Virus record (IMG/VR): IMGVR_UViG_3300042508_000221
Location: 10,091 to 74,090 of that record
Strand: one strand, 5' to 3'
DNA from: a virus
DNA: 64,000 nt
Part shown: one piece after another, positions 30,661-57,498 of the stretch
Layout of the letters: each line of letters starts with the position of its first letter
Position numbering within the stretch: the first letter of the stretch is position 1
The notes under the pieces: model-generated
Told to the model about the DNA's origin: nothing
The model's database searches: none
What the model saw: the letters and a program-made list of their open reading frames with translations, nothing else
Made by a program: the position numbers and the translations under genes

Positions 30661-32049
30661 ATGTTGTGGACCCATCAGCAGGAAGCGATCTCGTGGGCCG
30701 ACGGCCGCAGGGATGTCCTTCTCTGGATCGGCATGGGGGCCGGGAAAACACGCACGACGCTCGAGATCATCAAGCGGGCCATGCTGGCCGGGTCGTTTCG
30801 TCGCATTCTCGTCGGCTGCCCGAAAGCCGTGATTCCCGCCTGGGCGAAGCAGGCGGCGATGTGGCTGCCTGAAATCCGCGTTGTCTTGCTTGACCGCGGC
30901 ACCTCGGCCGACAAAGGCCGGCAGATCGTGGCAGCGATGGCCGATACGTCGCCCGTGATCATCGTCGGCAACTACGAGTCGCTTTGGCGAATCAAAGAAG
31001 TTGAAAAGCTCTCCTGGGACTGCCTCGTGTGGGACGAAGTCCATCGCCTCAAGTCACCGTCGGGGGCGGCGAGCAAATGGGCGGCAAAGCTGTGCAAGAA
31101 GAACCCGACCGCGAAGCGGATCGGACTCTCGGGCACGCTCCTCGCCCAAAGCCCGCTCGACGCCTACGGGACATGGCGAGCCGTCGAATCGCCGGAATGT
31201 GCCACCTTTGGCACGACCTACACGCTGTTCAAGGCCACCTACGCGATCACGAATCCAGCCATCCCCGGCATGGTCATCGGCTGGAGGAACAAGGAGCAGT
31301 TTGCGGCCAGGGTCGCGGCCACGACGTTCCAGCGCAAAAGCGAGGATGTCCTTGACCTGCCGCCGATTCACCACGTTGAAGTGCCGGTCGAAATGACGGC
31401 CAAAGAAGGCAAGGTATACACGCAGCTTGAGAAGGACTTCTGCGCCGAGGTCGACGGGGGGTACATCACTCCCCAGAACGCGATGGTCGGTCTGCTGCGG
31501 ATGCTCCAGGCCACCAGCGGCTTCATGCGGCTCGACGACACCGTCGCCGCGAGGCAGATCGACGAGACCCCGTCGAAGCGGGCGGCGTTCGCGGAGATGC
31601 TTGAGGATATGCCCGAGCACGAACCGCTCGTCGTCTTCTGTCGGTTTCGCAGCGACATCGACAGCGTCCTCCACGTTTGCGACCAACTGGGTCGCACGGT
31701 GGGCGAGTTGTCGGGTAAAGTGGACGACCTTGCCGCGTGGCAGGCCGGGAAGACCGCCGTGCTGGTCGCTCAGATTCAAAGCGGCGGCATCGGCATCGAC
31801 TTAACGCGGGCGAACGTGGGCGTCTTCTACAGCCTCGGCCACTCGCTCTCCGAATGGCTCCAGGCGATCGCCCGACTGCACCGCCCCGGCCAGGAACGAC
31901 ACACGCGATTTTTTAGTCTGGTTGCACAGCTACACGGCAAGACAACGGCCGACGGCCGCGTGTATGAAGCCCTCTCCAATCGAAAGGAAGTGATTGATGT
32001 CGTCTGCAATTCCTACCGTGCAAGACAGTGCGCTGTCGACCGCACTTGA
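30661..32049 (+). CDS. SNF2-family (SF2) helicase
   Basis: MGAGKT, DEVH, LSGT, GGIGIDLT, QAIARLHRPGQ. Confidence 0.9.
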   Translation: MLWTHQQEAISWADGRRDVLLWIGMGAGKTRTTLEIIKRAMLAGSFRRILVGCPKAVIPAWAKQAAMWLPEIRVVLLDRGTSADKGRQIVAAMADTSPVIIVGNYESLWRIKEVEKLSWDCLVWDEVHRLKSPSGAASKWAAKLCKKNPTAKRIGLSGTLLAQSPLDAYGTWRAVESPECATFGTTYTLFKATYAITNPAIPGMVIGWRNKEQFAARVAATTFQRKSEDVLDLPPIHHVEVPVEMTAKEGKVYTQLEKDFCAEVDGGYITPQNAMVGLLRMLQATSGFMRLDDTVAARQIDETPSKRAAFAEMLEDMPEHEPLVVFCRFRSDIDSVLHVCDQLGRTVGELSGKVDDLAAWQAGKTAVLVAQIQSGGIGIDLTRANVGVFYSLGHSLSEWLQAIARLHRPGQERHTRFFSLVAQLHGKTTADGRVYEALSNRKEVIDVVCNSYRARQCAVDRT

Positions 32050-33743: not shown

Positions 33744-33788
33744 CCCCGCGGGGCCGTCAGCTTTTGGCGGCTCCGCGGGGGGTTCTTT
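33744..33788 (+). terminator. Intrinsic terminator-like hairpin
   Basis: 16-bp stem with two G-U pairs (CCCCGCGGGGCCGTCA / TGGCGGCTCCGCGGGG) followed by GGTTCTTT. Confidence 0.55.
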
Positions 33789-33814
33789 GCACAACAAACC
33801 AAAGGAGTGGATCA

Positions 33815-34696
33815 ATGAGTTGGAAGGCGATATCGAGCGACAAGGAAAAGTATCAGGCGTATCTATGTAGTCGCGAGTGGTGCGCCAGACGCGAGGCCGT
33901 CAGGAAGCGAAGCGACGGCAAGTGCGAACGATGTCGCGTGAACGAGATGGATCACGTTCATCATCTGACATATGCCCGCAAATACGACGAGCCGCTGGAT
34001 GACCTCCAGGCTCTCTGCAAGCAGTGCCATGAGTTTACGCACGGCAAGTGCGATTATGACCCTCGGGTCAACTCGCCGCTGTTTCTTGAGAGAGGAAAGC
34101 CAATCCGATCTGTCTATCTGGCAGGGAAAATCACTGGCGACGATTGGCGCGACGAGATAGTTGATGGCTGGAGCTACCAGAACCACTCTCCGTTTTATTA
34201 TCAAGCAGTCGATTCTGACAGAGGCGACAAATGGGAAGTGGTTCCTCGCGCTGTTTCAGCGGCGTTTGGGTCTCGCCTTGATTACTTAGGGCCGTGGTGG
34301 TGCGATTTCGGTAGAGGCGGCGGTCACGGAGACTCTAATTGGTGCGGCGAGCCTCACGCATACACGCCCGTTGAATTTGATGATCACGGGGTCGGCGCGC
34401 TCCCGAGCGGAGCTGACCGAAGGCGTGCAATGTCGATCGTTCACAAAAACATCGACTCGGCGATCACTAAGTGCGACCTCCTGTTTGCTTGGATCAACTC
34501 AGACGACTGCTTCGGCACAATCTTTGAGATCGGATTGGCTGTCGCGCGAAGGAAGACAGTGGTCGTCGCAAGTCCGAAGGAATTCGATGATCACCAGATG
34601 TGGTTGTGCCAGCAGTTTGCGGCGACTCGCATTTTTGCGAATACGGCGGGAGAGGCGTGGAAGAAGCTCTGGAACCAAGTGGAGGCGAATGTATGA
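33815..34696 (+). CDS. HNH domain fused to a nucleoside 2-deoxyribosyltransferase-like domain
   Basis: YL.S.EW, CERC, HVHHLTY, LCKQCH; then VYLAGKI, CDLLFAWI, GTIFEIGLA. Confidence 0.7.
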   Translation: MSWKAISSDKEKYQAYLCSREWCARREAVRKRSDGKCERCRVNEMDHVHHLTYARKYDEPLDDLQALCKQCHEFTHGKCDYDPRVNSPLFLERGKPIRSVYLAGKITGDDWRDEIVDGWSYQNHSPFYYQAVDSDRGDKWEVVPRAVSAAFGSRLDYLGPWWCDFGRGGGHGDSNWCGEPHAYTPVEFDDHGVGALPSGADRRRAMSIVHKNIDSAITKCDLLFAWINSDDCFGTIFEIGLAVARRKTVVVASPKEFDDHQMWLCQQFAATRIFANTAGEAWKKLWNQVEANV

Positions 34697-36450
34697 ACGA
34701 CATATTCAAAGCAGCAGCAGGATACGCCGCCAATCAAGGCTGGCCGATGGTGCAGAACTGGGGCATGCGAGAAGACGGCGGGTGCATGTGCCATCGCCGC
34801 AAGTCATGCGCCACCCCAGGGAAGCACCCCATCCACGATGACTGGCTTCTTCATGTCACAACAGACGAAGACGTGATTGCGTCGTGGTTCGAGGATGACG
34901 CGATGTTCAACATCGGCCTCCCCCTCGGCCCGTCCAGCGGTGTGATCGATACCGAATGGGACGACGAGAAGTCTTTTGCCACGGCGAAGAGGTTTGGCCT
35001 GCTCAACATCCCGACCCCCGGCTTCGTCTCCTCTCGTGGCGGTCACAGGCTCTGGAAGATGGACAAGCGTCTGATCGACATCTCGAAGGGCGTCAAGAAG
35101 ATCGACGGACTGGAGGTGCGGTTCGGTGGTGGCGGCAAGATGACGCAGTCCATCATCCCGCCCAGCGTGCATCACACGGGCAAGAAGTATGCGTGGGAGC
35201 CCGGTAGATCGCCGGATGAGGTCGAGCTGGCGACGATGCCAGAAGCTCTTGTGCTCGCGGTCATCGCCGCATGCGGTGGCGAAGGGGGGGAAGGCGAGAT
35301 CACCAAAAACACGATCTACGAGCGGATCATTCAGGAGGGCGAGCGGAATGATGCTCTCGTCGCCTGGATTTCGTCAGAGATCATGCGGATGAGAGACCCA
35401 CACGACCCCGTCGAGCAGCAGAACGTGCTGATGATCTGCCGGTCGCTCAACCAAACGCGGCTCGCAGACCCCCTAAAAGACCCGCAGGTCGTCTCAATCT
35501 GGCAGGGGCAGCTCCGCTGGGGCATGAAGGCTAGGGCGTCTGGGGCCACCAAGATCGCCAGCACCGACAAGGATGCCGACGAGAAGGTTCGCGAGATGAA
35601 GGCGAAGAGTCCACATACCGCCAGCGGTCTGGAAATCCGCAGCGGCGAGTGGTTCCCGGGTCTGTGGCGGCTCACAGTCGTTCACTCCGACCCCAAGGAG
35701 TTTCGCCTGGGCGTGCCCCTGCCTGGGGCCACCCAAGATGACGAAGAAGACGAGAAGATGCGGGTCTTCGTCTCGCTGACCAGCGCCGACTGGTCTAGCC
35801 CCATCGCCGTCGCCAGGAAGGTGCTCGAGGCCACAGGCACGATCGACGTGACCGACCCGAACCCCAAGGAGTGGGCCAAAATCTGGAACGGCTACTCCTA
35901 CAAGCCCGAGGGGGAGAAGAAGACGGTCAAGGTGCGCGGCCTCAAGGTCAAGTTGATGGATGACCGCGACGAGGAGTGGCCGCCGGCCGAGCAGCAGCGG
36001 TATGCGGTCGTGGCTGGGTGGCTGCTAGACGGCTTGTCGAACATCGCCAAGCCGGAGCCGGACATGGACGACTCCATGCCCCACCCGTCGGGCAGGCCAT
36101 GCTGGGTGCGGTCTGGCGACGGCACCTACGAACTCTACTTCTCGTGGACTCGCGTATTCGAGGACATCCAGAAGACGAGGAAGGTCAGGCTCAACGAGGG
36201 CGACATGGTGGCCCTGAAGAGGCGGATGCTGGCAGCCGCGGAAGAGAACGAGTTCAAGATCGAACGGGTGCGGACGGAGACCGGAGTCAGGCGGCGCTAC
36301 GTCGTCTGGACGCAAGCCCATATTGCCCATCTTGAAAACATTGCCCATCCTGACGGCATTCTTGGCCCAAAAGCCCTTATATATAGGGGCCAAATTGATT
36401 TTCAGGAACCAATTGTAGACGCGGGAAAGCTGGTTTGTGGGCCAGCGTGA
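34693..36450 (+). CDS. Bifunctional primase-polymerase (prim-pol) with PriCT-like region
   Basis: GWP, C.C....C..PGKHP, NIG, D.E, GGH, PPSVH.TG..Y.W, EGERND. Confidence 0.8.
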   Translation: MNDIFKAAAGYAANQGWPMVQNWGMREDGGCMCHRRKSCATPGKHPIHDDWLLHVTTDEDVIASWFEDDAMFNIGLPLGPSSGVIDTEWDDEKSFATAKRFGLLNIPTPGFVSSRGGHRLWKMDKRLIDISKGVKKIDGLEVRFGGGGKMTQSIIPPSVHHTGKKYAWEPGRSPDEVELATMPEALVLAVIAACGGEGGEGEITKNTIYERIIQEGERNDALVAWISSEIMRMRDPHDPVEQQNVLMICRSLNQTRLADPLKDPQVVSIWQGQLRWGMKARASGATKIASTDKDADEKVREMKAKSPHTASGLEIRSGEWFPGLWRLTVVHSDPKEFRLGVPLPGATQDDEEDEKMRVFVSLTSADWSSPIAVARKVLEATGTIDVTDPNPKEWAKIWNGYSYKPEGEKKTVKVRGLKVKLMDDRDEEWPPAEQQRYAVVAGWLLDGLSNIAKPEPDMDDSMPHPSGRPCWVRSGDGTYELYFSWTRVFEDIQKTRKVRLNEGDMVALKRRMLAAAEENEFKIERVRTETGVRRRYVVWTQAHIAHLENIAHPDGILGPKALIYRGQIDFQEPIVDAGKLVCGPA

Positions 36451-36528
36451 CGTAAGTGGCTACTGACTAACACTTTAGGGTGGACCGAAAACCCGCCCAC
36501 AAAACCCCAAGGAAGGAAAAGCGGTCCA

Positions 36529-38172
36529 ATGCAAGTTGCAAGGCTCATCGGTGGTGCTGGAACAGGGAAGACAACGGAGTTACTCGGGATCATGAAGTCG
36601 GTGCTCGAGCAGATCGGCGACACGCCGTCTGCCATCGGGTTTGCCAGCTTCACGACGGCGGCCCGCGAGGAGATGGTGAACCGGGCGGCAGCGGCGTTTG
36701 ACTGCCACCCCTCCATGCTGGACAAGCATGGCTGGTTTCGGACGGTGCATTCGACGTGCTTCAAGATGCTCGACCTGAAGACCGAGCAGATGCTCACCAG
36801 GGACGACAAGGCGTCGAAATGGATCGCCGACCGGCTCCGCGTCTCGGTCTCGTGGAAGAAGGTCGGGGATAGCGGGTACGCGGCCTGTGTGGGCGACGAC
36901 GAGGCGGCTGCCTCCCTGACGCTCTGGGACATCGCCAGAAGCCGTATCGTGCCTTTGGCCTCTGTTCACGCCGAGAAGTCCCATGCGGGGCTGGACGTGC
37001 CTCCTATCGCCACCGTGAGGCATTTCATCAGGAAGTACGAGGATGCCAAGCGGATCGACGGCAAATCCGACTTCGTGGACATCCTCGGCCGGTATGCCGG
37101 AGTGAGGTTCCCTTTGGAGGGGCCGGAGGAAATGGAGCCGGAGGGTGATTTGCCAGAGGGCGTGCAGGCGTGGGTATTCGATGAGGCTCAGGACTCGTCA
37201 GCACTGGTCGATCGCGTCTGCCGGCGGTTGGCGTATGGGCGGGGGGTCAAGTGGACGTACCTAGCCGCGGACCCTTTTCAGTCGGTCTTCGGCTTCGGCG
37301 GCGCAGACTACAACAACTTCCTGTCGTGGAACGTCGACAAGGAGCGGACGATGCCGCAGTCCTGGCGGTGCCCAAAGCCCGTAATGGAGCTTGGCGAGCG
37401 GTGCTTGCGGCGGATGCACAAGGGATACTTCGACCGGAAGATCGCCCCTGCATCCCACGACGGGTGCGTCATCCGCGAGGCGTCCGTCGAGCGGGCGCTG
37501 AGTCAGGTCGATGGTAGCCGCTCGACACTGGTGCTAGCTCGCTGCAACTACTCGCTGGCGAAGTTCTCCCAGGTGCTCGAGTCTAGGCGGATTCCTCACG
37601 CCGGCATCAACGACAAGGACGACACAAAGGGGCTGGTGGCCTACAACGCCTACTGGAAGCTTCAACACGGCCAGGGCATTGGAGGGCATGAGTGGAAGGC
37701 GGCCATCGAGCTGACGCCCGTAAAGGCTACTGGTGACGCCATCTTTCTGCGGCGGGGCGCGAAGTCGGCCTGGAGCAAGGGTGCCAGGGACGACGTTGAC
37801 TTCATCGCGGCCGACGAAATCGCCGACCTCGGCGGCGTGACTCCGGCCCTGATGGAGCTGATCCAGTCTGGCGGATGGGCGTCCCTGCTGGACGGCGGGA
37901 AGAAGTGGTACGACTCTGCAAAGAGGCACGGGCCGGCGACCGCGACGAAGCCGAATGTTCGTCTGTCGACCATTCACGGGGCCAAGGGGATGGAGGCCCA
38001 AGACGTGATCCTGGCGACCGAGACGGCCGCCCGCGTCGAGCAGGAGCGAGAACTTGACCCACGGTGCCACGACGAGGAGTGCCGGCTTGAGTACGTCGGC
38101 GTCACTCGGGCAAAAGAACGGCTGATTGTGTGCGAATCTGACGAACCCTACGCAATGGAGCTGCCACGCTGA
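36529..38172 (+). CDS. UvrD/Rep-like SF1 helicase
   Basis: GGAGTGKTT, DEAQD, DPFQSVFGF, QSWRCP, STIHGAKGME, YVGVTRAKE. Confidence 0.9.
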   Translation: MQVARLIGGAGTGKTTELLGIMKSVLEQIGDTPSAIGFASFTTAAREEMVNRAAAAFDCHPSMLDKHGWFRTVHSTCFKMLDLKTEQMLTRDDKASKWIADRLRVSVSWKKVGDSGYAACVGDDEAAASLTLWDIARSRIVPLASVHAEKSHAGLDVPPIATVRHFIRKYEDAKRIDGKSDFVDILGRYAGVRFPLEGPEEMEPEGDLPEGVQAWVFDEAQDSSALVDRVCRRLAYGRGVKWTYLAADPFQSVFGFGGADYNNFLSWNVDKERTMPQSWRCPKPVMELGERCLRRMHKGYFDRKIAPASHDGCVIREASVERALSQVDGSRSTLVLARCNYSLAKFSQVLESRRIPHAGINDKDDTKGLVAYNAYWKLQHGQGIGGHEWKAAIELTPVKATGDAIFLRRGAKSAWSKGARDDVDFIAADEIADLGGVTPALMELIQSGGWASLLDGGKKWYDSAKRHGPATATKPNVRLSTIHGAKGMEAQDVILATETAARVEQERELDPRCHDEECRLEYVGVTRAKERLIVCESDEPYAMELPR

Positions 38173-38648
38173 TGGACACGCTTTTCGATGTATCTCCCGA
38201 CGAACCTGTTCGGTCTAAAGGGAAACGCCTTACTCGCGCGCAGCCTGTTGCTCCCTTACAAGAACCAGAAAAGCCGGTTCTTTTTAGGGCATTCCAGCAG
38301 GACAGAGCGATCCTGCCCATCGGCATGATCGATCACACCTACGACTGCGCCGACGCCGCCTGCGGCACGCAGCTCCACGACATCCTCCACGAGGATGGCG
38401 GCGAGTGGTATCTGTCGTGCGTGTTCTGCCATACCGGCCAGTGGGTAAAGGCGATCAAGGGTCACCTGAAGCCAAAGGAACGTGAGTTCGTGCTGCGAGA
38501 CGGCCGCTTCGCCGGCCTCACGCTGCCCGAGGTGGAGAAGCAGCCGCGTGGCCTTGACTACCTGAAGTGGGCGGCCGAGAGCCATCCGCGACCGACTGTC
38601 AGGGCCGAGTGCCAAAGACATCTAGACAAGACATCTGGTGTTCGTTAG
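38172..38648 (+). CDS. Hypothetical protein with Cys pairs and GRF.G...YL.W tail
   Basis: C....C / C..C; C-terminal GRFAGLTL.EV...DYLKW. Confidence 0.55.
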   Translation: MDTLFDVSPDEPVRSKGKRLTRAQPVAPLQEPEKPVLFRAFQQDRAILPIGMIDHTYDCADAACGTQLHDILHEDGGEWYLSCVFCHTGQWVKAIKGHLKPKEREFVLRDGRFAGLTLPEVEKQPRGLDYLKWAAESHPRPTVRAECQRHLDKTSGVR

Positions 38649-38669: not shown

Positions 38670-39035
38670 ATGGAGTCCGCGGTTATGTATGGCGCATCTA
38701 CACGCTTCCGAAAGCACTCTGCCTCGTGCGACACGGTGGAGGTGTCGCTATACATGGCCGGCGACATCGAGCACGCAAAACAAGTCATCAGGTTGTATTG
38801 CAAGAACAACCCGACGTGCGTGACCGTGACGCCGACGACGTTCATCTACCGCGGCGGCGAAGAGGCCGGTTTTGTTGTGGGGTTCCGCAACTATCCGAGG
38901 TTTCCGACCGACTTGGCCGCGCTTGAGGCTCACGCCGCGCCTCTTGCAGACGAGCTGCGAGAACAGCTTGGGCAGGACTCGCACATGATCGTAACGGCCA
39001 CAAGTACGACGTGGAGCACCAACCGCGATGCCTGA
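38670..39035 (+). CDS. Hypothetical protein (start uncertain)
   Basis: CVTVTPT.FIY.GGEE.G...NYPRFP. Confidence 0.55.
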   Translation: MESAVMYGASTRFRKHSASCDTVEVSLYMAGDIEHAKQVIRLYCKNNPTCVTVTPTTFIYRGGEEAGFVVGFRNYPRFPTDLAALEAHAAPLADELREQLGQDSHMIVTATSTTWSTNRDA

Positions 39036-39876
39036 GTATCATTTTCTCAACCTGGGTGCGGGCGTTCAATCAACTGCTCTGTACCTCATGAGCATCGACG
39101 GTAGTGAGCCAGAAGTGCCGAAGTTTGATGCCGCGATCTTTGCCGATGTGCAGGAGGAGCCAGATGAGGTCTACACACACCTCGAGCACCTCAAGACGCT
39201 CGGAGGCCCGCCGATCATCGTGACCACTGCGGGCAAGCTTGGTGACGCACTGGATCACAAAGGAAGCGGAAAAACAGGGCACTACACAGCAATCCCGTCT
39301 TACACGCTCAACCCGACAACTGGCAGCAGGGGGATCATCCAGCGTCAATGCACCGCCGACTTCAAGGTGAAGCCGATTGAACGCACCATTCGCGAGGAAT
39401 GCGGAGGTCAGTTTGGTAAGCCCCTGCCGAAAGGCGTCGTTGTTCACCAGTACATGGGCCTATCTTTTGACGAGCCGAAGCGAGTGATCCGAGTTAAGCA
39501 GCGGTTCCTCGCCAAGCCAGCAAGCTGGCAAGTTCATTTCCCTCTTTGGGAAATGCAGATGACGCGATCCGACTGCGTGGCGTACCTAAATTCAAGGATA
39601 ACCTATGAGGTGCCACGATCTGCTTGCGTGTTTTGCCCTTTCAAGGCGGACTCGGAGTGGCGCAGGCTCAAGGAAGAAGACCCGAAGGGCTGGGAGCGGG
39701 CGGTGCATATCGACAAGGTGTGCCGCACTGGGAATGGTCTAGATTCCCATCGGTATCTGCACAAGGCGTGCGTGCCGCTTGATCAAGTTGACCTGCGGCC
39801 TGCCGACGAGAAGAGCGGCCAGAAGCACCTGTTCAGCGGGTTTCAAGACGAGTGCGAAGGCTACTGTGGCAATTAG
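39028..39876 (+). CDS. PAPS-reductase-like PP-loop protein, copy 1
   Basis: LGAGVQS, IFAD..EEP, RQCT.DFK, PRSACVFCP, ECEGYCG. Confidence 0.75.
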   Translation: MPEYHFLNLGAGVQSTALYLMSIDGSEPEVPKFDAAIFADVQEEPDEVYTHLEHLKTLGGPPIIVTTAGKLGDALDHKGSGKTGHYTAIPSYTLNPTTGSRGIIQRQCTADFKVKPIERTIREECGGQFGKPLPKGVVVHQYMGLSFDEPKRVIRVKQRFLAKPASWQVHFPLWEMQMTRSDCVAYLNSRITYEVPRSACVFCPFKADSEWRRLKEEDPKGWERAVHIDKVCRTGNGLDSHRYLHKACVPLDQVDLRPADEKSGQKHLFSGFQDECEGYCGN

Positions 39877-39930
39877 GCTACTGGCCGACACTCACAAAGG
39901 ATCGCCGCCGAAGAAGCCAAGCGAAAACCT

Positions 39931-40782
39931 ATGAAAAAGCGAATCCTAAACCTCGGAGCTGGCGTCCAGTCGACGGCTCTGTACCTGATGGCGATGGACG
40001 GCGAGATCGAGCCGTTTGACGTGGCGATATTCGCCGACACCCAGGAGGAGCCGGCTGATGTTTATCAGCACTTGGCTTGGATGGAATCACTGGGCGGCCC
40101 CACGATTTTGAAAGCGTCGGCTGGAAGCCTTGGTGACTGCCTGCTTGCCGGCAGCGATGCCCGCGGCAATATGAGGCGAGACGGTTCGCACTTCTCTTCA
40201 ATTCCCGCCTACGTCATGGACGGAGACAAGAAAAAAGGCATCGGCCAGCGGCAATGCACGAAGGAGTTTAAGGTCGATGTCGTCGAGAGGGTTATCCGCC
40301 GTCAGATATTCGGCGTAGAGCCGGGGCGACCGCTGCCGAAAGACTCCGTCTGCGTTCAGCTAATGGGGCTGTCTTTCGACGAGCCGAAAAGAGTAATCCG
40401 CGTCAAGCAGCGGTACTCTGCGAGGCCGAAGCAGTGGCTGGTTGAGTTCCCGCTATTTGACCTTGAGATGTCGCGAGGCGACTGCGTGTCTTACCTGAAG
40501 GACAGGGTTCCGCACAAAGTGCCACGGTCGGCGTGCGTCTTCTGCCCGTACAAGACCAACAAGGAATGGCTTGAACTAAAAGAGACAGACCCAGTCTCGT
40601 GGGCCAGGGCCGTGCAGATCGACGAGGGCGTCCGCGGCGACGGGTCTCGCGGCCTGAACTTCCTTCACCGCTCGTACCAGCCCCTGGCTGTTGTCGACCT
40701 GCGATCCGAGGAAGAAAAGTCTGGTCAGAGGTCTTTGTTCTCGAATTTCAACGACGAGTGCGAAGGCATGTGCGGCGTATAG
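39931..40782 (+). CDS. PAPS-reductase-like PP-loop protein, copy 2
   Basis: Same motifs as copy 1, ending ECEGMCG. Confidence 0.75.
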   Translation: MKKRILNLGAGVQSTALYLMAMDGEIEPFDVAIFADTQEEPADVYQHLAWMESLGGPTILKASAGSLGDCLLAGSDARGNMRRDGSHFSSIPAYVMDGDKKKGIGQRQCTKEFKVDVVERVIRRQIFGVEPGRPLPKDSVCVQLMGLSFDEPKRVIRVKQRYSARPKQWLVEFPLFDLEMSRGDCVSYLKDRVPHKVPRSACVFCPYKTNKEWLELKETDPVSWARAVQIDEGVRGDGSRGLNFLHRSYQPLAVVDLRSEEEKSGQRSLFSNFNDECEGMCGV

Positions 40783-40846
40783 GCTACTGGACGATACTCC
40801 CGGCGTAGTTTAGATTCTCCCCGCACACAACGGAAAGGATTCCCGT

Positions 40847-41035
40847 ATGGCACTCTGCTTAACACGTCGCCCCGGTCAGAAGCTGATTCTGGATCGACCG
40901 CATATCGAGATCACGGTGGAATCCGTGGTCGGCAAGACGGTGCGTCTGGTCATCGACGCCCCCAGGCACGTCAAGATCGTGCGTGAGGAGCTGATCTATC
41001 GGGCTCCGCCGAAGACCGAGGAGGCCGCGTCGTGA
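40847..41035 (+). CDS. csrA: Carbon storage regulator CsrA/RsmA-like
   Basis: L.LTRR.GQ.L, VRL.IDAP..V.I.REEL; 62 aa. Confidence 0.85.
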   Translation: MALCLTRRPGQKLILDRPHIEITVESVVGKTVRLVIDAPRHVKIVREELIYRAPPKTEEAAS

Positions 41036-41436
41036 TCGTCACAGTCACCAAGCAGTTTCACTTCTACGCAGCTCACCGCAACGAAGAGATCGGCGGCAAG
41101 TGCGCGAACATTCACGGGCATCGCTACGGTCTGACCGTCACGGTAGCAGGACAAAGAGAAGGCAGCGTGACCGTTCTTTTTGAGCAATTAGAGCGATGGG
41201 TGCAGGCTGAAATAATCGATCCGGCAGATCACTCGCTCATGCTGAACCGCGAAGACCCAGCGGCCGATGCCCTTCTGGCATCCGGCGCATGCGGGAAGGT
41301 CTTCTGGGTGAGCGGCCCGACATCGTGCGAAAACATTGCAGAGCTTTTTTTCTCAATGTTGCAGTCAGTCTGCGCCTCGGTCGTTTCGGTAACGCTGAAG
41401 GAAACCGACACATCCTCAGTCACGGTGACGGCATGA
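41032..41436 (+). CDS. queD: 6-carboxytetrahydropterin synthase
   Basis: F.AAH, CANIHGH (CxxxHGH), DH, PT..EN, ET..S. Confidence 0.88.
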   Translation: MIVTVTKQFHFYAAHRNEEIGGKCANIHGHRYGLTVTVAGQREGSVTVLFEQLERWVQAEIIDPADHSLMLNREDPAADALLASGACGKVFWVSGPTSCENIAELFFSMLQSVCASVVSVTLKETDTSSVTVTA

Positions 41437-42017
41437 AGCTAAAACTTGCCAGCCAGGGCGTGTATTGGACGATCCAAGGCGAAGGCCACTTCGCAGGCGA
41501 GCCGATGGTTTTCATTAGGCTGGCAGGATGCTCCGTCGGCTGTCCGAAGTGCGACACGAACTACAAGCCCTCTCGCGAGGCAACGGTTGATGAGATCGTC
41601 GCCGAGTGCGTGCGTGCGCGCGACGAGAACGGCCGTGCGAAGTACGTCTGGGTGACCGGCGGCGAGCCAACCGACCAAGACCTGACCAAGCTAAATCGGG
41701 CGGTTTGGGACGCTGGGTTCAAGCCGTGTCTTGCGACCAGTGGCATACGGAAGGTCGGGGGTCACTGGTGGTGGCTTTCCGTCTCGCCACATGCGAACGG
41801 CTTTGAGCAGCGGATGGGTGCCGAGCTGAAGCTCGTGCCTGGGCTGAACGGCCTCTCGTTGGACGACATCGACCTCTCTGGCACCGACTTCGGATATCGC
41901 TATGTCCAGCCTATGGCGGGCAACGCGGAGTCTCTTGTCGCCTGCATCGAGTGGGTGAAGACCCACAGCGACTACACCCTCTGCCAGCAGAGCCACAAGG
42001 AATGGGGTGTGCCATGA
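41433..42017 (+). CDS. queE: 7-carboxy-7-deazaguanine synthase (radical SAM)
   Basis: TIQGEG, FIRLAGC...C..CDT, TGGEP, QSHK. Confidence 0.9.
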   Translation: MKLKLASQGVYWTIQGEGHFAGEPMVFIRLAGCSVGCPKCDTNYKPSREATVDEIVAECVRARDENGRAKYVWVTGGEPTDQDLTKLNRAVWDAGFKPCLATSGIRKVGGHWWWLSVSPHANGFEQRMGAELKLVPGLNGLSLDDIDLSGTDFGYRYVQPMAGNAESLVACIEWVKTHSDYTLCQQSHKEWGVP

Positions 42018-42421
42018 AGGCCGTCTACCTAGCTGGGCCGATCAACGGGTGCTCCGACGACGAGTGCATGGCGTGGCGTTCCAGAGCGCGGAAGCTCCTT
42101 GAAGGGCAGTTCGACATCTACGACCCGTTGGATCGCGACTTTCGTGGCTGCGAGGCTATTTATGCAGAAGCAATTGTCAACACAGACCTGCACGCGATCG
42201 CCGCCTGCGACTTTTTGCTCGTGAACGCTTCTCGCCCCTCCTGGGGGACGGCGATGGAGGTGGTTCGGGCATGGGACAGCGGCAAGGGCGTCGTCGCGTT
42301 CTCCGATGCGGAAGCACCAAGCCCGTGGCTGACGGTTCATACACACGCGATCGTCAAGTCGCTCGAGGCCGCCGTTGTGTTCGTGATGAACTTCGACGCG
42401 ATGGCGAGGAGCCGCACATGA
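42014..42421 (+). CDS. Nucleoside 2-deoxyribosyltransferase-like protein
   Basis: VYLAGPI, WR, DP, D..AI..CD, GTAME, SPWL. Confidence 0.75.
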   Translation: MKAVYLAGPINGCSDDECMAWRSRARKLLEGQFDIYDPLDRDFRGCEAIYAEAIVNTDLHAIAACDFLLVNASRPSWGTAMEVVRAWDSGKGVVAFSDAEAPSPWLTVHTHAIVKSLEAAVVFVMNFDAMARSRT

Positions 42422-43095
42422 CCGTCTACCTCGCCAGCCCCGGCAACCAGCAGCAGGCCGAGCATGTGAAAGATATGCCGGTGCTCCTGTCGTTCGGCTT
42501 GTACGACCCGTTTCTGGACAAGTACCAGCATTCGTTCCGTCGGCTGCTGATCGATAGCGGCGCGTACTCGGTGCTGAACTCTGGGCAGAAGATCGACATC
42601 GCAGCGTATGCCGACTGGTCGCTCCGCTGGGAGGGCCACGCCGATGCGGTCGCCGGTCTTGACGACATCGCAGGCGACTGGCGGCAGAGCCTCCGCAACT
42701 ACGAGGCGATGCCGAACGGATTTCCTACTATGCACGACTCTGACCCGCCGGAGTTGCTGAAGGATTTGGTTGCCATCGCTCGCGAGCGAGGCAACTGGAT
42801 CGGCATCGGCCTTGTGCCGCCCCGCGAAGGCAAGGAGCGGTTCGTTCGCTGGGCATGCGACAACATTCCCGAGGACATGCACATTCACGGCTGGGCCTTG
42901 CGAGCGTACACAAAGGTCAGGCGGCTCGACAGCGTCGACAGCACGAACTGGTGGCGCGACGCATTTAAGGTTCGTCGGGATTTGCCGTGGCTGACCTACG
43001 GCGAGGCGTTGGAAATCATTGTGAAGCGGTATCAGCGTGAAAACCGCGTGATCGTCGATGACACTCAGAAAACCATGTTTGAGGAGGTCGCGTGA
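42418..43095 (+). CDS. dpdA: TGT-fold transglycosylase, DpdA-like
   Basis: IDSGAYS, LD.I.GD, P..H, IHG, DSVDSTNW; adjacent to queD/queE. Confidence 0.7.
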   Translation: MTVYLASPGNQQQAEHVKDMPVLLSFGLYDPFLDKYQHSFRRLLIDSGAYSVLNSGQKIDIAAYADWSLRWEGHADAVAGLDDIAGDWRQSLRNYEAMPNGFPTMHDSDPPELLKDLVAIARERGNWIGIGLVPPREGKERFVRWACDNIPEDMHIHGWALRAYTKVRRLDSVDSTNWWRDAFKVRRDLPWLTYGEALEIIVKRYQRENRVIVDDTQKTMFEEVA

Positions 43096-44012
43096 GCAAG
43101 AAGAAGCCAGCTTTCAGCGTCGAGCAGTCTCTCGCCGGTATCGCGAAGACGGTCCACGAGCTGCGCGAGGAGGGCGAGTCGACCGACCGCATGGTGGTGG
43201 TCGCCAGCAGGGGGCTCGCCGCCTTGACTGCCCGCGTCGAGGCTCTGGAGAAGTCGTGGGCAGCGGTGCTGTTCGATGTCGAGCAGCTCAAGAAGCCGCC
43301 CAGAACGTGGTTCCAATTTCTCAACGGCGAGTGATGCTCCTGGGCATGAATGAAATCGAACAGTCGATCAGCGTCTGGCTGAACGTCGCGACGCTCCTCG
43401 TGTTCGTTGGGGCGGTCGCGTACATCAGCCTCATCCCGTACATGACGAGGGATAAGTGAAACCCCCTGCACCGATCGACATCGACGACGAGTTGTTCTGC
43501 ATGGTGTGCAGGCCGTCAGAGGACGGGGCGGCGTCGTATGTCGACTGCCGCTTCGATAGCGTCCCTCCGACGAATGACGATCCAGACTATTCGGAGAATC
43601 CAGACGCGCTGCGGAAAGTCGCGGCGTGGCTGGTGAAGGCGGCCGATTGGCTTGAGAAGGAGCAGGGGCGATGATGAAAGACTTTTCATCGGCGTTCGCC
43701 GATTTTTTGAATTCAGATGGATCGATGAAGCTGCCAATCACTTTTTATCACGCTTTTGAGGCAGGCCCGATTCACACCAACATCGACCCTGACGGAATCA
43801 TCGTGACAGTTACAGTGCATTCGATTGACACAGAAGAGCCATGCCTTCTGACGATGCTTTTTCCGATGCCGTTGGGTGCCGCCAAGGCGAAGCTGCGGCA
43901 AGGACGGCTTCCTGTTTTGCAAAGCAGCGCGGTAACAGTGCTGCGAAAGATCGACGAAGTAGTCGGAGATTCTGGTGAGCGGTACTCACGGTTTAAGGTC
44001 GAGGTGACATGA
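43092..44012 (+). other. Four small coupled hypothetical ORFs (43092-43334, 43334-43459 TM, 43456-43674, 43671-44012)
   Basis: Overlapping stop/start coupling; no recognisable motifs. Confidence 0.5.
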
Positions 44013-44740
44013 CCCCCATCGAAGACAAAGCCCTCGCCGCCTTCCTTCTGGGCGTTCCTGCCGCGATGGCCGGCACGACCGACGACGCCGTGCCGGACGC
44101 GAGGTACATCGAGTACGGTTCTCGATTCCGCGATTACACAGTTCGCTTCTCCGGCCGCGACGATGACGGCAAATACTCGGAGGCGACGGCAACTCTGCTG
44201 TCCCCGCACTGGGCGATCACTGCGGCGCACGTTGCCGTCGGCGTCAGCGGGATCACGCTGTCGAACCGTCTGGTTGACCGAGTGGTCATCCACCCGGACT
44301 GGGACGACGACAAGAACGGATTTCACGATCTGGCCCTGCTGCACTGTGACAAGCCCGCTGGCATTGCCTACTATCCACCACTTAGCGACGGCGACGAGAA
44401 GGTCGGACAGACGGTCAGCATCGTCGGCTACGGCCTCTACGGGAAGCTGACTGCGGGGCACGAGGGCTACGACGGCAAGCTGCGGGCGGGGACGCAGACG
44501 ATCGAGCGTTTCGAGCGGTCGGTCATCGTCTGCCACGCTCAGTGTGGGACGAGCACGCTCGAGTTCTGCATCTCGCCTGGGGACTCAGGAGGCCCGCTTT
44601 TCGCCGGAGGCAAGCTGGCCGGGGTCAATAGTTTCACGATGGCCCCGAGGGGGCCGCTGAAGAGCCGCCAGGGCGAGGAGACGGCGCACACGCGGGTGAG
44701 TTTGTATCGGGAGTGGATCAAGGAGGTAACCGGAGAATGA
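44009..44740 (+). CDS. Trypsin-like serine protease, possibly exported
   Basis: TAAHV, DLALL, GDSGGP catalytic triad; hydrophobic N-terminus. Confidence 0.88.
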   Translation: MTPIEDKALAAFLLGVPAAMAGTTDDAVPDARYIEYGSRFRDYTVRFSGRDDDGKYSEATATLLSPHWAITAAHVAVGVSGITLSNRLVDRVVIHPDWDDDKNGFHDLALLHCDKPAGIAYYPPLSDGDEKVGQTVSIVGYGLYGKLTAGHEGYDGKLRAGTQTIERFERSVIVCHAQCGTSTLEFCISPGDSGGPLFAGGKLAGVNSFTMAPRGPLKSRQGEETAHTRVSLYREWIKEVTGE

Positions 44741-44994
44741 GCGTCGAACGACTTGAAGAGCTTACCGAGATCAACCCCGAAGCGCTCCTGGCCGACGGCC
44801 TCGAGTCGGCGTTCATCGGCTACACGGCGAATCATCATCACGCCGTCGTCGCCGTCTACGACTACGACAAGTGCGTCCAGGCTCTCGTCGACCGCGACGG
44901 CATGACGCACGAGGAGGCCGACGAGTTCCTCGAGTTCAACACGCTCGGAGCCTACGTCGGCGAGAACGGCCCGCTGTATGTGAGGCTTGGTTAA
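44737..44994 (+). CDS. Conserved phage hypothetical protein
   Basis: ADG..SAFIG, VAVYD, EEA.EFLEFN.LGAYVGE..P. Confidence 0.65.
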   Translation: MSVERLEELTEINPEALLADGLESAFIGYTANHHHAVVAVYDYDKCVQALVDRDGMTHEEADEFLEFNTLGAYVGENGPLYVRLG

Positions 44995-45398
44995 TGGAAC
45001 TCTTCATCCTCAAGACCTCCCGCCTGCGCCGCTCCGAGCGGCGATTCATCGCCGACCACCTGACGCGACCGGAGAGCGAATTCCAGCGTGCTCTGCTCGC
45101 CGGCACCGTGACCGGCACGATCGCCATCTGCCTAGATCAAGGCGAGATCATTGGATGGGCGAGGACTGAGGTCTGGCAGGGCATCCCGACGCTTGAGGCG
45201 TTCGTGTCGCCCGCCTACCGCCGCCGCGGCGTGGCAACGCTCTGCGCCGCCGGCCTGCGGACAGAGGGCGTGTTCCGCGACCACGAATTCGTAGCCGTAT
45301 TCCGGCCGACGATGATCCCGCTCGCCCGCCGACTGAATCTGTCGACCGCGACCTTCGACCGGAAGCCCGACGGGACGTGGCGAGAGGCGAAAGCGTGA
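44994..45398 (+). CDS. GNAT-like acetyltransferase
   Basis: IIGWA, FVSPAYRRRGVAT (acetyl-CoA motif A). Confidence 0.65.
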   Translation: MELFILKTSRLRRSERRFIADHLTRPESEFQRALLAGTVTGTIAICLDQGEIIGWARTEVWQGIPTLEAFVSPAYRRRGVATLCAAGLRTEGVFRDHEFVAVFRPTMIPLARRLNLSTATFDRKPDGTWREAKA

Positions 45399-57435: not shown

Positions 57436-57498
57436 TCTGAGCCCCCTTTCTTCAGGTGTAAATCTTCCTTGGTAGCCTATTAAGTATCGGTCAGTAGC

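Follow-up and report, generated by a model that had tools for sequence, protein, structure and literature searches.

Bases of the 7-deazaguanine type in DNA give phages a major route of escape from restriction and Cas9, and enzymes that make them are still being added to the known set. In the DpdA1 system, described for Escherichia phage CAjan and Mycobacterium phage Rosebush, the base is 7-cyano-7-deazaguanine (preQ0) (Hutinet et al. 2019, PMC6884629). Phages with partial pathways are also described, including Mycobacterium phage Bipper, which lacks QueC only, and Salmonella phage 7-11, which carries DpdA alone (PMC6884629). Cellulophaga phage phiST has a QueC-less 2'-deoxy-7-deazaguanine (dDG) system composed of FolE, QueD, QueE, DpdL, and DpdA3 (Cui et al. 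2023, PMC10516641). Here we analysed a predicted 7-deazaguanine module, csrA-queD-queE-NDT-like-dpdA-like, and the two PP-loop (ATP-pyrophosphatase) genes in front of it, at positions 39028-43095 of a viral stretch of 64,000 nucleotides (the window). NDT stands for nucleoside 2-deoxyribosyltransferase. The window comprises bases 10091-74090 of the 74,090-bp IMG/VR virus record IMGVR_UViG_3300042508_000221, a record with a completeness of 100% (CheckV) and a GC content of ~62%. The region 39028-43095 sits inside the replication module of this ~74-kb phage.

Similar to the DpdA1 preQ0 system, the window encodes a DpdA of the same lineage and clusters QueD and QueE in the replication module; post-replicative exchange of the base is expected. 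Unlike that system, the module lacks FolE and QueC, its DpdA is ~80 residues shorter (225 vs 306 aa) and has no Pfam match, and its dpdA is in translational coupling with an NDT-like gene. As in Bipper and 7-11, some preQ0 genes are missing and the host queuosine pathway is presumably used; however, the window lacks two steps (FolE and QueC), and has a different, short DpdA branch and an NDT-like partner. The module resembles that of phiST in the presence of QueD and QueE without QueC beside a short enzyme resembling tRNA-guanine transglycosylase (TGT). In contrast to phiST, it has neither FolE nor DpdL, the second QueD-like T-fold protein with the motif LxxxHRHxF, and profile comparison shows no relationship between its DpdA and DpdA3.

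The reading that we consider probable is that the region contains two independent cassettes, the second of which encodes an incomplete 7-deazaguanine pathway of the DpdA1 lineage, complemented by the host and assisted by an NDT-like helper. The conserved NDT-like partner of DpdA and a large family of short DpdA proteins outside Pfam look new.

Genes of the 7-deazaguanine module

The genes of the module are the following:

40847..41035, + strand, csrA-like RNA-binding regulator (PF02599, E 2.6e-15)
41032..41436, + strand, QueD, 6-carboxytetrahydropterin synthase (PF01242, E 6.5e-24; TIGR03367, E 4.6e-17)
41433..42017, + strand, QueE, radical S-adenosylmethionine protein with CxxxCxxC (phrog_2076, E 1.6e-20; TIGR04508, E 3e-23; TIGR04322, E 2e-21)
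42014..42421, + strand, NDT-like protein with a nucleoside 2-deoxyribosyltransferase / dNMP N-glycosidase fold (PF05014, 42 bits, cut-off 28.8)
42418..43095, + strand, DpdA-like protein of 225 aa (phrog_887, E 2e-15; no Pfam match)

A first-pass annotation, made from the sequence without database searches, had described these genes as a coupled run directly after two PP-loop genes. The run is indeed present on the plus strand, and all of its junctions are overlapping stop and start codons, GTGA between csrA and queD, ATGA between the NDT-like gene and dpdA, and GTGA or ATGA at the queD/queE and queE/NDT junctions. The csrA gene, with its GTGA overlap with queD here, is also kept in siblings without deazaguanine genes, and is therefore a backbone gene of this phage group and not a pathway gene. 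QueD carries the motif CANIHGH, which is of the canonical CxxxHGH type that the annotation had recognised, and not of the DpdL type. The matches of QueE to phrog_2076, TIGR04508, and TIGR04322 all lie below the curated cut-offs. QueE is the commonest neighbour of the short DpdA family (22-23 of 44 loci). This and all following locus counts refer to IMG/VR neighbourhoods with a neighbour radius of 7 kb (the 80 closest loci of the PP-loop family, 80 of the NDT family, and 44 of the short DpdA).

The absence of queC and folE, claimed for the 64 kb, was found to extend to the whole genome. Pfam searches for QueC (PF06508) and FolE (PF01227), to which control genomes responded, gave no candidate in the full 74,090-bp record, and custom hidden Markov models (HMMs), trained on seven QueC and three FolE sequences from phages, gave no match at E<=10 in its six-frame translation. 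Three complete genomes of the short-DpdA family (G000, G001, and G006) lack QueC. The 6-pyruvoyltetrahydropterin synthase (PTPS) family (PF01242) has a single match in the genome, which is QueD, so the genome has no DpdL.

The short DpdA

The first-pass annotation had proposed that the short DpdA may be a distinct subfamily. Its homologues fill >1,000 clusters of similar length, and the listed ones carry no Pfam domain. NCBIfam gave no match for the window protein and a sequence search of the PDB nothing significant. An alignment of the family matched in hhalign the DpdA of Edwardsiella phage ZHS at 97% (E 1e-10) and the DpdA1 of CAjan at 92% (E 5e-7), and tblastn matched the short DpdA to Rosebush-type DpdA. 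Comparison with DpdA3 of phiST (CGPG_00065) gave 0.1%, and the protein does not group with DpdA3. A dDG system of the DpdL/DpdA3 type was rejected for the window on this value and on the single PTPS gene with CANIHGH.

The AlphaFold2 model of the short DpdA (pLDDT 88, pTM 0.84) is a TIM barrel. Foldseek matched it in the PDB to bacterial TGT, archaeosine TGT, and Cap10 at E ~1e-4 with TM scores of 0.55-0.67, although class II aldolases score similarly, and in BFVD to phage proteins named queuine tRNA-ribosyltransferases. The model is thus consistent with the TGT fold expected for the protein at 42418. Two motifs, D46-S-G-A and S172-V-D174-S, show little or no variation across 26 short-DpdA sequences and align with DSGAYS and SVDST of ZHS and with DSGAFS and SCDSS of CAjan; they appear to be equivalent to Asp102 and Asp280 of TGT. 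From these comparisons we assign the short DpdA to a divergent branch of the DpdA1 / phrog_887 lineage, and it is a predicted DNA guanine transglycosylase. Since the branch is invisible to Pfam, surveys based on Pfam may under-count deazaguanine phages.

A conserved NDT-like partner of DpdA

Similar to members of the NDT / DNPH1 (Rcl) family PF05014, the NDT-like protein has an above-cut-off family match and the motifs YLAGP and GTxxE, the latter with the catalytic Glu. Its GTAME aligns with the catalytic GTAFE of the solved NDT 6qai, and E82 is invariant in the family alignment. Unlike those members, it is genomically tied to DpdA, and its similarity to solved proteins is weak (E 0.018). The motifs DPxxRDYRGxE and SPWLxxH are invariant and specific to its family. 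NCBIfam gave no match.

The functional tie to DpdA that the annotation had proposed for this gene is borne out by its distribution. With a custom HMM, DpdA was found at 41 of the 80 NDT-family loci, always on the same strand and within ~0.9 kb, compared with two of the 80 PP-loop loci, a control of similar total sequence. Both gene orders occur (25 pairs NDT-first, 16 DpdA-first), and the pairing spans 15 of 27 sequence clusters at 60% identity. Eight DpdA partners were checked and are strong phrog_887 members (E 1e-43 to 1e-70). Twenty-eight of the 41 pairs have no QueD, QueE, or QueC within 7 kb; the NDT-like gene is therefore linked to DpdA itself rather than to the synthesis of 7-carboxy-7-deazaguanine (CDG). 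In cultured phages, three out of four NDT-like matches lie inside QueC-containing preQ0 clusters, namely those of Aminobacter phage Erebus, Rhizobium phage RHph_X3_2, and Edwardsiella phage ZHS. This NDT family is a conserved companion of DpdA, a pairing for which no description was found in the searchable literature.

As a helper, the NDT-like protein would cleave or transfer the N-glycosidic bond of purine or 7-deazapurine deoxynucleosides or deoxynucleotides, and so feed or clear the free-base pool of DpdA. From the fold and the conserved Glu we would tentatively assign it to the salvage or clearance of free purine or 7-deazapurine base. A further role is conceivable, if doubtful, in which it is an obligatory second component of a large phage DpdA class, enabling a base other than preQ0 (CDG or a derivative) or shuttling of base and deoxynucleoside. 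This would be a new enzymatic step in 7-deazaguanine DNA modification. Several DpdA proteins are inactive when expressed alone in E. coli (PMC10516641), and an NDT-like partner could account for this. A complex prediction for DpdA and the NDT-like protein scored 0.00, below the mark, which counts neither for nor against binding.

The conserved NDT fold and catalytic Glu would also suit a pre-replicative route, in which the NDT-like enzyme joins a 7-deazaguanine to deoxyribose, the product is phosphorylated and incorporated by a polymerase, and DpdA is secondary. A deazapurine nucleoside is reported from cells infected with Campylobacter phage CP220, as cited in PMC10516641, and Hutinet et al. 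2019 left room for unrecognised deoxyribosyltransferases (PMC6884629). However, the NDT-like gene is almost always welded to DpdA, the module has no recognisable phage kinase or dedicated polymerase, and in the current view of the field all known cases are post-replicative (PMC10516641). We regard such a route as improbable.

Two further observations concern NDT-like proteins. CGPG_00066 of phiST was considered as a homologue and rejected (hhalign 0.2%). The open reading frame (ORF) at 33764-34696 of the window encodes an HNH nuclease domain together with an NDT-like domain that differs from the one in the module (PF05014, 29 bits); the ORF is kept in the sibling locus L001 with 77% identity, and the NDT HMM made from cultured-phage homologues gives no match to it.

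The PP-loop genes form an independent cassette

The genes upstream of the module are the following:

38670..39035, + strand, g38670, small gene (phrog_4848, E 8e-33), conserved upstream partner of the PP-loop gene
39028..39876, + strand, PP1, PP-loop protein resembling 3'-phosphoadenosine-5'-phosphosulfate (PAPS) reductase (phrog_424, E 3e-33; PADLOC SspD, E 6e-17)
39931..40782, + strand, PP2, paralogue of PP1 (phrog_424, E 5e-31; PADLOC SspD, E 5e-13)

The annotation had placed this pair at the head of a candidate new pathway and proposed, as one of two readings, that the twin enzymes replace QueC. They would then activate the carboxylate of CDG with ATP, to give an amide, thio, or other derivative for DpdA. 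The two genes directly precede the module on its strand and, like QueC, fall within the broad ATP-pyrophosphatase superfamily, and a PP-loop gene occurs within 7 kb of DpdA in five of the 44 short-DpdA loci. Nevertheless, near siblings of the phage carry either cassette alone. The sibling G001 (locus L001) is a complete genome of 72,419 bp with terminal repeats, and its DpdA is 97% identical to that of the window. Its layout is g38172-csrA-queD-queE-NDT-dpdA-g43092, without g38670, PP1, and PP2, and neither a PP-loop homologue nor QueC was found anywhere in the complete genome. The sibling G011 (locus L097) has the layout g38172-g38670-PP2-csrA, with PP2 and csrA at 97% nucleotide identity to the window (blastn); ~790 bp of small ORFs stand where queD-dpdA would be, and no DpdA was found in the record. 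PP1 is absent from both siblings. The PP-bearing relatives G014 (99% complete) and G015 (90%) also lack DpdA.

The wider family behaves similarly. The check for co-occurrence with dpdA clusters, suggested by the annotation, gave DpdA at the two of 80 closest PP-loop loci already mentioned, and QueC, QueD, QueE, and NDT at none of the 80, so that 78 of the 80 loci have no deazaguanine gene nearby. A PP-loop gene stands alongside a genuine QueC in L025 and L052. The family is also present in phages such as Thermus phage P23-77 and Pelagibacter phage HTVC034P, the deazaguanine gene content of both being unchecked. Because of the double dissociation among near siblings, we place the PP-loop pair outside the deazaguanine pathway: it takes no part in 7-deazaguanine synthesis, and the two accessory cassettes are merely adjacent. 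A role of these enzymes in place of QueC is therefore very improbable, and a false lead is removed.

The proteins themselves do not resemble QueC either. PP1 and PP2, which are 56% identical to each other, lack a PF06508 match, the SGGxDS P-loop, and the C(x)8CxxCxxC zinc motif of QueC. Their loop is GxGxQS (GAGVQST), and their cysteines are arranged as C108, CxxC at 200/203, and CxxxC at 276/280; in the family alignment C108, C200, and C203 never vary and C276 and C280 hardly do. No Pfam match was obtained for the two proteins even at E 10, and none in NCBIfam. Among families they match SspD best, in PADLOC over model positions 1-216 of 277. A sequence search of the PDB with PP1 gave nothing significant. 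Its AlphaFold2 model (pLDDT 81) has CysH (E 2e-4), YcfA, TtuA, and LarE as top Foldseek matches, all with low TM scores of ~0.4, and a QueC structure is not among the top matches.

The PP-loop proteins thus share with the SspD/DndC/CysH proteins of Ssp and Dnd phosphorothioation (PADLOC PDLC02782) the model match, a PAPS-reductase-like fold, and conserved cysteines. Unlike in the Ssp and Dnd systems, a phage encodes these genes, and their partner is a small phage-specific protein. No SspA/B/C or DndA/D/E partner was recognised in a scan that covered the two flanking genes g38670 and g38172, neither of which has a PADLOC match. The cassette 38670-40782 has its own function, which is probably DNA-directed or in sulfur or adenylate chemistry.

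The g38670 gene belongs to the PP-loop cassette and lies outside the deazaguanine module. Its stop overlaps the start of PP1, and a homologue is found directly 5' of the PP-loop gene in 15 of the 80 PP-family loci, and likewise in L025/L028. A protein atlas search with g38670 returned viral hypothetical clusters only. The phrog_424-type PP-loop family has >7,700 clusters, and two copies at one locus were found at no other of the PP-family loci compared. The overlapping pair of g38670 and an SspD-like PP-loop gene recurs in many uncultured phages (L055-L097).

A motif of ~20 nt, TAGGCTACTGRNCGAYAC, occurs at 38646, 39874, and 40780 on the plus strand and at 57490 on the minus strand, with a variant at 36458 (five occurrences vs 0.16 expected). 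TAGGCTACTGRNCGAYAC begins on the stop codons of g38172, PP1, and PP2, and recurs behind the prim-pol gene. TAGGCTACTGRNCGAYAC brackets the units of the PP-loop cassette, and may act as a phage promoter or mark the edge of a recombination unit.

Predicted pathway and the modified base

From the gene content, FolE and QueC most likely come from the host, and the preQ0 deoxynucleoside (dPreQ0) is the most likely product. In the predicted pathway, dihydroneopterin triphosphate (H2NTP) would come from the host GTP cyclohydrolase I, phage QueD would convert it to 6-carboxytetrahydropterin (CPH4), and phage QueE would form CDG. The conversion of CDG to preQ0 would most likely be carried out by host QueC, and the short DpdA would then swap guanine of the phage DNA for the base after replication, giving protection from restriction.

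Relatives carry every partial subset of the preQ0 genes. Among the 44 short-DpdA loci, we found DpdA alone in 14, with QueE in eight, with QueE and NDT in six, and with QueD, QueE, and NDT in four; any set with QueC is present in seven, and FolE in none. Host complementation is thus a simpler reading than a new pathway. The complete genome G006 encodes QueE and DpdA only, without QueD and QueC, and must rely on host enzymes. All DpdA enzymes tested to date insert preQ0, and the QueC-less phage Bipper has already been placed among the preQ0 phages (PMC10516641, PMC6884629). The QueC- and FolE-less QueD-QueE-NDT-DpdA module of the first-pass annotation is thus real, whereas the need for a new pathway is not upheld.

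Some points weigh against preQ0 as the product. QueC (seven loci) and NDT (12 loci) never occur together in the 44 short-DpdA loci; the exclusion has a p of roughly 0.04-0.09, which, given small numbers and related loci, is a hint only. Modules linked to NDT could, on this pattern, use a different base such as CDG, and DpdA2 of Vibrio phage VH7D inserts CDG at low efficiency without preQ0 (PMC10516641). The reaction proposed for the NDT-like protein is a guess based on fold and conserved Glu.

CDG could accordingly be the end product, with the short DpdA inserting it directly as the deoxynucleoside dCDG and the NDT-like protein possibly adapting the system or processing the base. QueD and QueE stop at CDG, none of the three complete genomes G000, G001, and G006 has QueC, and the mutual exclusion of NDT and QueC points in the same direction. 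The dCDG nucleoside is natural in virus STSV-2, and the insertion of CDG by VH7D DpdA2 was observed in E. coli without queC (PMC10516641). However, sequence identity between DpdA proteins of QueC-bearing loci and those of QueC-less loci reaches 85%, and no core position separates the two groups. The 28 NDT-DpdA pairs without QueD or QueE show that NDT is not tied to a phage supply of CDG, and NDT homologues stand beside QueC in the three cultured phages named above. The genome G006 shows that host enzymes are used anyway, and CDG insertion was ~40-fold less efficient in the sole measured case (PMC10516641). Direct use of CDG is an unlikely reading, though one to be taken seriously, and we retain host-complemented synthesis of preQ0 as the favoured one.

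DpdA positions that split QueC-linked from NDT-linked proteins were also sought and discarded, as only two loop or tail positions differ. The QueC proteins beside the short DpdA in relatives (L017:690-1277, L054:6489-7001, and L009) are short, ~170-190 aa. Annotated QueC of cultured phages is longer, with 240 aa in CAjan and 280 aa in Erebus, and the short proteins may, judging by their length, represent a minimal phage form of QueC.

Genomic context

Further genes of the replication module are the following:

30661-32049, SNF2 helicase
33764-34696, HNH-plus-NDT-like ORF
34600-36450, prim-pol
36529-38172, UvrD-like helicase

The gene order from the last of these onwards is UvrD-like helicase, g38172, g38670, PP1, PP2, csrA, queD, queE, NDT-like, dpdA-like, and g43092. 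A blastn search of 39028-43459 against 50,697 cultured-phage records gave zero matches. Host assignment through species genomes gave nine weak matches, the best being a 10-kb contig binned with a Blastocatellia metagenome-assembled genome, and was rejected as insufficient to name a host. Directly downstream of the module lie genes for a trypsin-like serine protease (44009-44740) and a GNAT-like acetyltransferase (44871-45398), and the protease gene is kept in both siblings.

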